From positions 23,391-87,390 of the forward strand of contig CBDVDR010000014.1 of NCBI GenBank assembly GCA_965372795.1: DNA of 64,000 nucleotides. The letters are read 5' to 3'. Shown piece after piece: positions 57,001 through 60,000 of the stretch. This stretch comes from an uncultured bacterium (lineage in GTDB: Bacteria > Zixibacteria > MSB-5A5 > GN15 > FEB-12). Every line of letters begins with the position of its first letter. Position 1 is the stretch's first letter. Position numbers: made by a program.

Positions 57001-60000
57001 CAAATCAATATTGATAAAGGGTAAAGGTATTATTGTTGAGGATAAAATTGAAAAGGCTCGATCTCTTCAGGTATTAATGGAAAAACATCAGTCTGTTGAC
57101 AGTTTTGATCCCATAAATATGGATACAAAATTGTATCAGAAGTCTATTATGGAAACGGCTATCTTCCGAATCACACCCGAAATCATAGATTTAAAGGTTA
57201 AATTTGGTGAAAATATGCCCATAGCGACTCGAAAGAAGGTTGTAGAGCAACTTTTAGAACGAAACGAAGGTGTCGATAGCCAAACGGCTGAAGAAATCCT
57301 TAAAACGATTGATTGATTTTTATTAATAGTTTCCATATCATTTAATAGGTGAGTGATTGCCTATTTTCTTGACTTTTATCGATAAATTTGGTTTTGTAAA
57401 CAAGTTTGTATTTGCATCTAATCACATAACAAGGAGTCGTTTTGCAGCCTGATAGCAAAACTGAAGTTACATATACCGATCTTTTCGAAAAATGCTATAA
57501 TTTTACCGAAGCCAGAAGAATTCAGAAATTAGGTATTTATCCTTATTTTCATCCGATTCAATCAGCCCTTGGTAACGAAGTCATCGTTGACGGTAAAAAA
57601 TGCATCATGATTGGCTCCAACAATTATCTGGGCTTGGTTAATCATCCCAAAGTTAAAGAAGCAGCCGCTAATGCTGCCTTGAAATACGGCTCCGGATGTA
57701 CCGGATCACGTTTCCTTAATGGTACTTTGGATTTACATATTGAACTTGAACATCGCCTTGCCAAATTCATGAAAAAAGAAACTGCTTTGGTATTCTCTAC
57801 CGGATTTCAAACTAATCTTGGCGCCATTTCTTCTTTAGTCGGAAAAAGCGACATCATCATTATTGACCGTCAGGTTCACGCCTGTATCGTAGATGGCACC
57901 CGTTTATCCTATGGCAAGGTCTATAAATTTGCTCATAACGATATGGATGATCTCGAACGGGTTATTAAAAACGTCCGCAATAATAACGGCAAAGGCGGAT
58001 TGATGATTGTCGTTGATGGTGTCTTCTCGATGGAAGGTGACATTATTAACCTACCCAAATTAGTCAAAATTGGAAAAGCATATGGAGCGCGAATATTAGT
58101 CGATGATGCTCATTCGGTTGGGGTTTTAGGTGAAACCGGTGCCGGAACCGCTCAACATTTTGGATTGATAGATGATGTTGACTTGACTATGGGAACATTC
58201 TCAAAATCATTCGCTTCACTTGGCGGTTTTATTGCCGGCGATGATGATATCATTCACTATATAAAACATAACGCCCGTTCTCTGATTTTTTCAGCTTCGA
58301 TTCCTCCTTCAAATGCCGCCGCAGTTTTAGCTGCCCTGGATATTATTGAAGCAGAACCGGAACGTAGAGAAAAACTCTGGAAAAATGCTCGCCGGATGCA
58401 GAAAGAATTTAGAGATTTAGGATTTAATATCGGACATACTGCCACTCCAATCGTTCCGATTGTAATTGGCGAGGATATAGATGCTTTTGTTTTCTGGAAA
58501 GAACTGTTTGACAACGGAATATTCACAAACCCTGTTATATCACCGGCAGTCCCTCCGGGACAAGCACTTATTAGAACCTCTTATACGGCAACCCATACCG
58601 ATGAACACCTCGATCAAGTAGTTGAAGTAATAGCAAAAATCGGACGCAAAAAAGGTATAATCTCTTAATATTATGGCTGATGTCACCGTCGTTGAAGTAA
58701 AATCATCCGCTCAATTGGGCAAATTTATTACTTACCCTAATAAACTTTATAAAGATGATCCGAATTATGTCTATCCCCTCCTTAGTGAGCGGAAAGAATT
58801 TTTTGATAAAAAAAACAATCCTTTCTTTCGCACAGCAAAAGTAAAACTCTTTTTAGCAATGCGTGACGGCCAGGTCGTCGGTAGGATTGCAACCTGCATA
58901 AATTTTAATCATAACGAATATCACAGCGAACAAGTCGGTTTTTTCGGATTTTTCGACTGTCCCGATGATTATGAAATCGCATCCAACCTGCTCAAAGTTT
59001 CCTTGATTACTTTGAAAAAAGAAGGTATGGAAAAAATGCGAGGACCGGCTAATTTTTCAACCAACCACGAATGCGGTTTTTTGGTTGAGGGCTTTGACTC
59101 TCCTCCGGTTGTAATGATGACTTACAATAAACCATATCTTCCTAAATTGGCAGAAAAATTCGGACTCAAAAAAGCAATGGACCTTCTGGCTTATGAAGTT
59201 CGAGGTGACAAAGATTACCCCGAGCGCATTAAGCGGGTTGTTGAACGATTGCAAAAAAAATCTAAAGTCACGATGCGACCGTTAAATATGTCTGATTTTG
59301 ATAATGAGATTGAAAAAATCCATGAGGTTTACAACAAAGCCTGGCAGTATAACTGGGGTTTTGTACCGATGGAAAAGGACGAATTTTTTCATAGCGCCAA
59401 AAACCTTAAGCAGATTGTCGAACCAAATCTGGTGACAATCGCCGAATTTGAAGGCGAACCGATAGGATTTTCATTAGCTCTGCCGGATATCAACCTTGCC
59501 CTGAAATATCTCAAAGGAAAACTGTTACCCTTTGGGATTATTAAACTTCTCTGGCATACCAAAATTAAAAGTAAAATTAATCGAGTCAGAATTATCACAT
59601 TTGGGGTCATACCGGAGTTTCAAAAACGCGGTATTGATATGCTTTTGTTTCATCGTACTTTTGTCGAAGGTGTCGGCCATGGCTATTACATTGGCGAATT
59701 GTCCTGGATATTGGAATCTAATGAACTGATGTGTCGTGGGGCTGAACAAATGGGCGGGAAATTATATAAACGCTATCGCATGGTTGAAATGCCTTTGTAG
59801 TATTCACAACTGTTTCAATTCTAATTCCGAAATTGACATTCTGGTGTCTAATACGTATATATCTTATATGAAAAAAAGTATCATTAACACCTCAATCTTA
59901 TTGATTGTTACTCTAATAATTGCAAGCTGCGCCAGTAGGTATAAACTTGAATTACATCTTACTACTGAAGATTTCCAAAGCAACGTCAAAGTCAAATCGA

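Follow-up and report, generated by a model that had tools for sequence, protein, structure and literature searches.

The window analysed here, a stretch of 64,000 nucleotides (positions 23391-87390 of contig C14) from the genome of an uncultured bacterium of the phylum Zixibacteria (98.65% complete), carries a pair of adjacent genes predicted to encode a serine palmitoyltransferase (Spt) and a bacterial ceramide synthase (bCerS). In our judgement there is a probability of roughly 85% that this pair represents the cytoplasmic part of the standard ceramide pathway of bacteria and that it has been inherited across nearly all Zixibacteria. The features considered are listed below, and all coordinates are window positions unless another contig of the genome (C8, C12 or C19) is given.

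36202..38421, forward strand: NAD-dependent epimerase/dehydrogenase and kbl-like paralogue, without Spt-type pocket residues (control outside the system)
53798..55789, forward strand: serA-like dehydrogenase gene plus serC, oriented like the pair and about 1.7 kb 5' of it
57431..57436, forward strand: SD-like AAGGAG, 5 nt ahead of the spt TTG start, read in the sequence
57442..58668, forward strand: spt, serine palmitoyltransferase-type alpha-oxoamine synthase, 408 aa, TTG start (profile, structure-match and residue evidence)
58673..59800, forward strand: bcerS, tandem-GNAT ceramide synthase homologue of the YghO / CCNA_01212 family, 375 aa (homology and fold model)
59868..60410, forward strand: predicted lipoprotein of about 180 aa with a lipobox-like IASC, 3' of bcerS (ORF call)

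The adjacency of spt and bcerS described in the first-pass annotation was recovered, the two ORFs lying on the same strand with 4 nt between them. A promoter scan of the region remained at chance level (10 found and 10.6 expected). Among the neighbours, the serA-like and serC genes could possibly supply serine; in the 20 regions sampled from other families, neither was seen at a distance of up to about 6 kb from bcerS. The predicted lipoprotein matched no Pfam or NCBIfam profile, its look-alikes in the Atlas are unnamed Bacteroidota clusters, and ORFs related to it were found 3' of bcerS in families f2-f4 only.

The product of 57442-58668 is, on its sequence features, a serine-type Spt. In NCBIfam it scored highest against SerpalmtaseCFB (NF047600), with 563.1 bits, a value that agrees with the score reported earlier and lies under the curated cut-off of 640 bits, and the next model reached 424 bits. 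Among solved structures the best match was the Spt of Sphingobacterium multivorum (449 bits), followed by the next enzyme at 297 bits. Identity to the Caulobacter Spt, the one Spt compared in this way, was 39.4%, and the previously quoted 49-53% to characterised Spts was not reproduced. The protein contains the PLP lysine Lys255 in a GTFSKS motif, together with His146, His224, Arg378 and a serine-type pocket formed by Gly88-Ser89. The residues surrounding the PLP-serine aldimine in the S. multivorum enzyme (PDB 8guh, 3a2b) are set out in PMC10196870; that enzyme shares the GTFSKS motif, and the equivalents of its Asn52, Gly80, Ser81, His138, His213, Thr241, Ser243 and Lys244 are kept in the window Spt. 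The pocket residues are also conserved in 17 of 17 aligned Zixibacteria Spts. Unlike the S. multivorum Spt, the Zixibacteria enzymes carry Ile in place of Met271 and Thr or Ser in place of Ala79, and the window Spt falls short of the cut-off of the model for Bacteroidota. Since Spt is also reported to accept alanine and glycine (PMC10196870), these pocket residues do not wholly fix the choice of amino acid.

The adjacent ORF (58673-59800) is a predicted bCerS homologue. A search of NCBIfam gave no matching model, a curated bCerS model included, and for this reason the Caulobacter locus was used for comparison. This reference locus of Caulobacter vibrioides was fetched via a published bcerS primer, and it carries the sites of the primer pairs for bcerS and cerR and of the forward primer for spt. 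The window protein aligned with Caulobacter bCerS over its full length (40.8% identity over 382 aa, E 1.4e-84), in keeping with the value of about 40% given on the first pass, and showed 35.7% identity to E. coli YghO. It is the only copy in this genome, and a close relative (P0002, from 'Candidatus Zixiibacteriota') is 79% identical. Among the matches listed for this protein, six of 120 bear a Zixibacteria name, and the phylum label was taken from such source names. A structure model built from an alignment of 86 rows reached a pLDDT of 92 (the single-sequence fold only 39.5) and displayed a tandem GNAT fold whose best match was 7q3a (Z 25.5, rmsd 3.3 over 305 residues); sequence search found no solved structures of bCerS relatives. 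YghO lies next to genes for an Spt, a reductase, a ligase and an ACP in E. coli, and the Rubrobacter homologue of bCerS is likewise clustered with Spt and reductase genes.

The distribution of both genes was surveyed in 285 Zixibacteria genomes from 20 families, up from the 61 genomes of the first pass; 198 of the 285 are of high quality (completeness of 90% or more, contamination of 5% or less). Matches to bCerS at E<=1e-5 were present in 273 genomes, including 196 of the high-quality ones, and matches to Spt at E<=1e-100 in 269, including 197 of the high-quality ones; both genes occurred in all 20 families. In each of five checked genomes with spt and without a bcerS match, among them both high-quality genomes that lack such a match, spt is placed at the end of a contig and points off it, and in the single high-quality genome without an spt match bcerS begins at a contig end. 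These contig-end positions indicate that the presence of both genes is effectively phylum-wide. One genome (G008) has spt in two pieces. In family f1, to which this genome belongs, spt and bcerS were directly adjacent in all 30 loci, that of this genome among them; the count was 21 of 30 for loci selected from families f5-f20. Of the nine loci that deviate, six lack an spt at a distance of up to 1.5 kb, two have the genes 0.4-1.0 kb apart and one breaks off at a contig edge. The proposal of a universal spt-bcerS operon is therefore overstated. Taken as gene content, these data support a near-universal occurrence of spt and bcerS in Zixibacteria, with ceramide synthesis as the best prediction.

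A candidate for the third enzyme of the pathway, the reductase CerR, is encoded on another contig of this genome (C8:32612-33628). It is 27.5% identical to Caulobacter CerR (E 7e-28), the same identity as in the first-pass annotation, which had regarded the CerR assignment as weak, and no curated CerR model matched. We consider the assignment to be firmer than that. The candidate and Caulobacter CerR are reciprocal best hits, and in a tree of 40 rows, including 10 other SDRs from this genome and 12 candidates from family f16, the 13 Zixibacteria CerR sequences constitute one clade (99/95) apart from the 10 other SDRs. This clade is sister to Caulobacter CerR plus the reductases of the E. coli and Rubrobacter clusters (94/94). 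The support of the node that links Zixibacteria CerR to Caulobacter CerR is slightly under the 95 bootstrap mark. Gene order was sampled in 20 regions of 18 kb from 18 families, and cerR is head-to-head with spt in 13 of them, an arrangement that firms up an assignment made at 27% identity. At E<=1e-40, CerR orthologues were found in 256 of the 285 genomes and in 19 of the 20 families.

The remaining family, f16, had no CerR orthologue at this threshold in any of its 10 genomes, so that the complete set of three enzymes is not universal. In five f16 genomes for which all candidates were scored, the best matches did not go beyond 1e-24 to 1e-28, and in the tree all 12 candidates from f16 fell outside the CerR clade. 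With Caulobacter CerR as query, the 10 f16 genomes yielded only partial, N-terminal matches, whereas four control genomes yielded full-length matches beside spt. No substitute reductase was detected among five ORFs scanned near the spt-bcerS genes of f16. The Spt tree, which is mostly unresolved, contains one very long outgroup and was used for this grouping only, places f16 Spt with that of f17 (99/97). Because f17 keeps cerR, secondary loss of cerR in f16 is the simplest reading.

Two further genes travel with cerR. A gene encoding a class V PLP enzyme is positioned 3' of cerR in 11 of the 13 head-to-head regions, and in seven of those a membrane protein of 130-160 aa belonging to no known family is encoded there as well; the same trio of cerR, membrane protein and class V enzyme is kept on C8 in this genome. 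The class V gene was detected in at least 237 of the 285 genomes, a first look in which at most six best candidates were scored per genome and some misses may be false; in this survey it was found in none of the six f10 and none of the 10 f16 genomes, nor in several f1 genomes that retain cerR. Of 90 genomes listed for both genes, mostly from f1 and f4, 86 have it directly after cerR. The enzyme was judged against the C-terminal cysteine motif which we take to be catalytic in desulfurases: no cysteine is conserved at this motif, the alignment giving the consensus REGxIRVSPHFYN, and the SufS model scores 145 bits (cut-off 475). With no catalytic cysteine motif and scores far under the curated cut-offs, the enzyme does not fit a cysteine desulfurase.

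Among 80 class V loci from metagenomes, cerR, the membrane protein gene or spt was nearby in 14 of 17 close relatives, while none of 63 distant loci (29-34% identity, many of them under 5 kb) had spt, bcerS or cerR nearby. A link between class V and ceramide genes across phyla is unsupported by the distant loci, and the association is seemingly confined to close relatives. The linkage with cerR may simply reflect operon inertia, and a lipid role for the class V enzyme is possible, with the odds somewhat against it. In a more extensive module, which appears unlikely as a whole, the class V enzyme together with the four-helix membrane protein would carry out an undescribed long-chain-base step, our favoured guess being, by analogy with sphingosine-phosphate lyase, a PLP-dependent cleavage serving turnover. 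Family f16, having lost the PLP enzyme along with cerR, would then make 3-oxo-ceramides naturally, and, were the GGGPS, DGGGPS and inositol genes active, amide-, ether- and ester-linked inositol lipids would share one membrane with lipid A.

Other interpretations of the pair were also considered. The same enzymes could mainly make a non-canonical backbone, either 1-deoxy ceramides derived from alanine or glycine or ceramides of other amino acids, as in the anoxic Black Sea, with the class V enzyme possibly feeding or tailoring the product. Ding et al. 2024 (PMC11334938) describe sulfur-bearing, lysine and 1-deoxy sphingolipids as abundant in euxinic water and note that alanine can be used by Spt, which fits this idea, as do the scores of Zixibacteria Spts under the curated cut-off and the regular position of a cysteine-less class V gene after cerR. 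However, the pocket residues match those of Spts that use serine, the class V gene was not found in f10 or in several f1 genomes that have cerR, and the distant class V loci are not associated with ceramide genes, which makes this alternative quite improbable. It is far less likely that the synthase is a cysteate fatty acyltransferase (CFAT/SulA) and the pair makes sulfonolipids (capnoids). Zixibacteria are placed in the FCB group (PMC6431249), in which sulfonolipids occur, and the CFAT structure 28eh scores 295 bits against the window protein, but the Sphingobacterium Spt scores 449 bits. Moreover, the lysine described as the mark of cysteate enzymes (PMC13692747), the trans-subunit Lys280/281 of CFAT, aligns to Ala285 of the window Spt, and the Gly-Ala pocket of CFAT aligns to Gly88-Ser89; with these pocket residues the sulfonolipid reading can be set aside. 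Hardly any credence can be given to a housekeeping BioF/Kbl synthase that lies beside an unrelated GNAT acetyltransferase by accident, since, even with BioF and Kbl models reaching 390-424 bits and generic public names for the GNAT relatives, there is a separate kbl-like gene at 37192-38421 (the sole other alpha-oxoamine synthase found in the genome, and different at the Spt pocket positions), the GNAT protein is 41% identical to bCerS, its E. coli and Rubrobacter homologues cluster with Spt and a reductase, and the spt-bcerS-cerR arrangement is repeated across 12 families.

Our preferred reading is still the standard ceramide pathway, and it follows the model Spt, bCerS, CerR described for Caulobacter (PMC11087976, PMC11324152). 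The presence and order of the genes are directly established, as are the residues and the fold, and each catalytic step is assigned by homology. As predicted from its sequence and active-site residues, Spt would join L-serine to a fatty acyl-CoA or acyl-ACP, giving 3-oxo-sphinganine. The full-length homology of bCerS suggests that it would N-acylate this intermediate in the cytoplasm to an oxidised ceramide. The CerR orthologue on C8 would then reduce the ketone to dihydroceramide, an assignment based on the reciprocal best hit, the tree and gene order; Caulobacter CerR is described as a periplasmic, peripheral-membrane protein that reduces the ketone (PMC11087976). An E. coli cluster ACP, used as a single query, had no match in this genome at E<=1e-4, and as a dedicated ACP was not found, the acyl group is likely to come from acyl-CoA or the housekeeping ACP. 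The ligase of the E. coli cluster, also a single query, gave only matches of 22-23%. Gene order across families suggests an ancestral divergent locus, in which spt-bcerS faced away from cerR, the gene for the membrane protein (140 aa) and the class V gene on the opposite strand, and which would have been split in the lineage of this genome.

Regarding the head group, MIPS and a PAP2_3 protein exceed the Pfam cut-offs in this genome. The latter is an Aur1-like protein (C12:99429-100358) with PSTH and HYxxD motifs, which was found in 216 of the 285 genomes and in none of the 21 genomes of f5. A PIP-synthase-like protein obtained 76 bits with the BT1523 model, whose cut-off is 350. These three proteins would correspond to functions of the inositol lipid cluster BT_1522-BT_1526 of Bacteroides thetaiotaomicron (Heaver 2022, PMC9246714); the genes are not clustered here and the PIP-synthase-like protein is far under the model cut-off. 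By analogy between the Aur1-like protein and BT_1522, we tentatively predict that inositol-phosphate synthase, the PIP-synthase-like protein and the Aur1-like PAP2 protein could lead to inositol phosphoceramide as in Bacteroides, a prediction less firm than that of the ceramide itself.

The genome also encodes LpxA and LpxC-FabZ, both over their cut-offs, and one LptFG pair; a second LptFG pair was not found in it. The presence of these genes indicates that ceramide does not replace LPS, and the predicted ceramides would be expected next to lipid A. They likewise rule out a Sphingomonas-like envelope with sphingolipid in place of LPS.

Candidate ether-lipid genes are also present. GGGPS of this genome scores 203 bits with TIGR01769 (cut-off 161.55), and among the 193 genomes with a completeness of 92% or more, 171 have a GGGPS above that cut-off. 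A DGGGPS-like UbiA protein (C19:42823-43668), searched for in this genome only, has DGGGPS 6m31 as its best PDB match (E 6e-25) and is under every curated cut-off. Neither G1PDH (PF13685) nor CarS (PF01864) gave a match over cut-off in this genome; both can be bypassed, as argued in PMC7852524. The GGGPS, DGGGPS-like UbiA, inositol-phosphate synthase and PIP-synthase-like genes named in the first-pass annotation were thus all found, and its suggestion of three coexisting backbones is compatible with these genes and is weakened by the lack of G1PDH and CarS matches and by the low scores of the DGGGPS-like protein. Sphingoid, ether and ester backbones may coexist, to judge by gene presence. Coleman 2019 (PMC6431249, Table 1) surveyed 12 FCB phyla, including Zixibacteria, and reports GGGPS and DGGGPS for every one, which means that the ether half is already in print, and the idea of mixed membranes in the FCB group was developed by Villanueva 2021 (PMC7852524). 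Relative to these reports, GGGPS and the DGGGPS-like protein are known here from genes. As in the Cloacimonetes discussed in PMC7852524, G1PDH and CarS were not found; in contrast to the co-localised GGGPS and DGGGPS genes of that group, the two are on different contigs here.

The high novelty originally attributed to the ceramide genes is not sustained. Ding 2024 (PMC11334938) also relied on genome-based prediction, finding Spt-like proteins of a Black Sea clade B in 1271 MAGs from 38 phyla, or 40 phyla in total together with the earlier nine. We found no report of Zixibacteria sphingolipid genes in the literature; the phylum is not named in the main text of Ding 2024, whose figure or supplementary phylum list may include it, nor in the text and text supplements of a 2025 sediment paper (PMC12619533). 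With the pathway already predicted in about 40 phyla and GGGPS and DGGGPS reported in 2019, the pair is one more lineage in an already widespread pathway and not a new system, and the additions made here, near-complete retention, a family without CerR and the genes linked to cerR, are modest. In most phyla treated in PMC11334938 only part of the genomes carry the genes, whereas nearly all Zixibacteria do, and such near-complete retention, uncommon among predicted producers, suggests a core role in the envelope. The finding names a phylum of sediments and the subsurface as a likely source of ceramides in anoxic waters and sediments.

The closest known counterpart is the pathway of Caulobacter crescentus, described by Uchendu 2024 (PMC11087976) and Olea-Ozuna 2024 (PMC11324152), with CCNA_01220 (Spt), CCNA_01212 (CC_1154, bCerS) and CCNA_01222 (CC_1164, CerR) corresponding to the three Zixibacteria proteins at the identities given above. 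The Zixibacteria genes leave the model of bacterial ceramide synthesis unchanged, and f16, with no CerR orthologue found, lends itself as a natural case for examining whether acylation or reduction comes first, a point under dispute. The ceramide kinase and nucleotidyltransferase of the Caulobacter cluster had no match in this genome. Unlike in Caulobacter, spt and bcerS are directly coupled here and cerR is divergent or located elsewhere, and in Zixibacteria two more genes go with cerR, one for a small membrane protein and the other for a class V PLP enzyme.

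The conserved surroundings of cerR, the gene of the orthologue of the ceramide-pathway reductase CerR, and other genes considered with the spt-bcerS pair are located as follows (G000, source genome; L, extracted DNA regions):

G000:C8:31015-33628 (L037:9016-11629), trio of cerR, a gene for a 140-aa membrane protein and a gene for a class V PLP enzyme lacking the catalytic cysteine motif of desulfurases
Window 52540-55789, 414-aa ORF, serA-like gene and serC, just upstream of spt and sharing its orientation
G000:C12:99429-100358 (L210:1084-2013), PAP2_3 membrane protein resembling Aur1/IPT1; the ORF immediately downstream is lgt-like (assigned on inspection only)

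Besides G000, the cerR trio is conserved in L093, L096, L097, L099, L107, L108 and L112, and it is kept intact where spt-bcerS has relocated. In family f16 (G238-G247), spt-bcerS is intact (L103, L104) and neither a CerR orthologue nor the class V PLP enzyme was found (each 0/10 genomes), and it is possible that these bacteria are natural producers of oxidised ceramides.

In G237 (family f15; L102:7226-9130) two inserted genes separate spt from bcerS: a 399-aa ORF that matched no Pfam family, and a member of the carboxymuconolactone-decarboxylase family. G008 (89% complete) has spt in two ORFs (L112:9510-10702) and an additional divergent bcerS copy (C7:18404-19492, 36% identity).

The 414-aa ORF had no NCBIfam match at 1e-20, and its group with serA-like and serC was not seen near spt-bcerS in other families. 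Further upstream, window 49762-50199 appeared, on inspection of the translation by eye, to encode a histone-like lysine-rich repeat, built of KKKVA-type units, in fusion with a C-terminal part that is SWIB-like.

The Aur1-like protein was detected in 216 of 285 Zixibacteria genomes, with none found in families f5 (0/21) and f6 (0/3). Elsewhere in G000, a UbiA-family protein (C4:200710-201582; L208:1444-2313) scored above the decaprenyl-phosphate phosphoribosyltransferase cut-off.

Outside the phylum, spt-bcerS-cerR-like genes form a compact trio on plasmid 1 of the Gram-positive actinobacterium Rubrobacter radiotolerans, and a gene of the LTA-synthase family comes next (L036:6704-12296).
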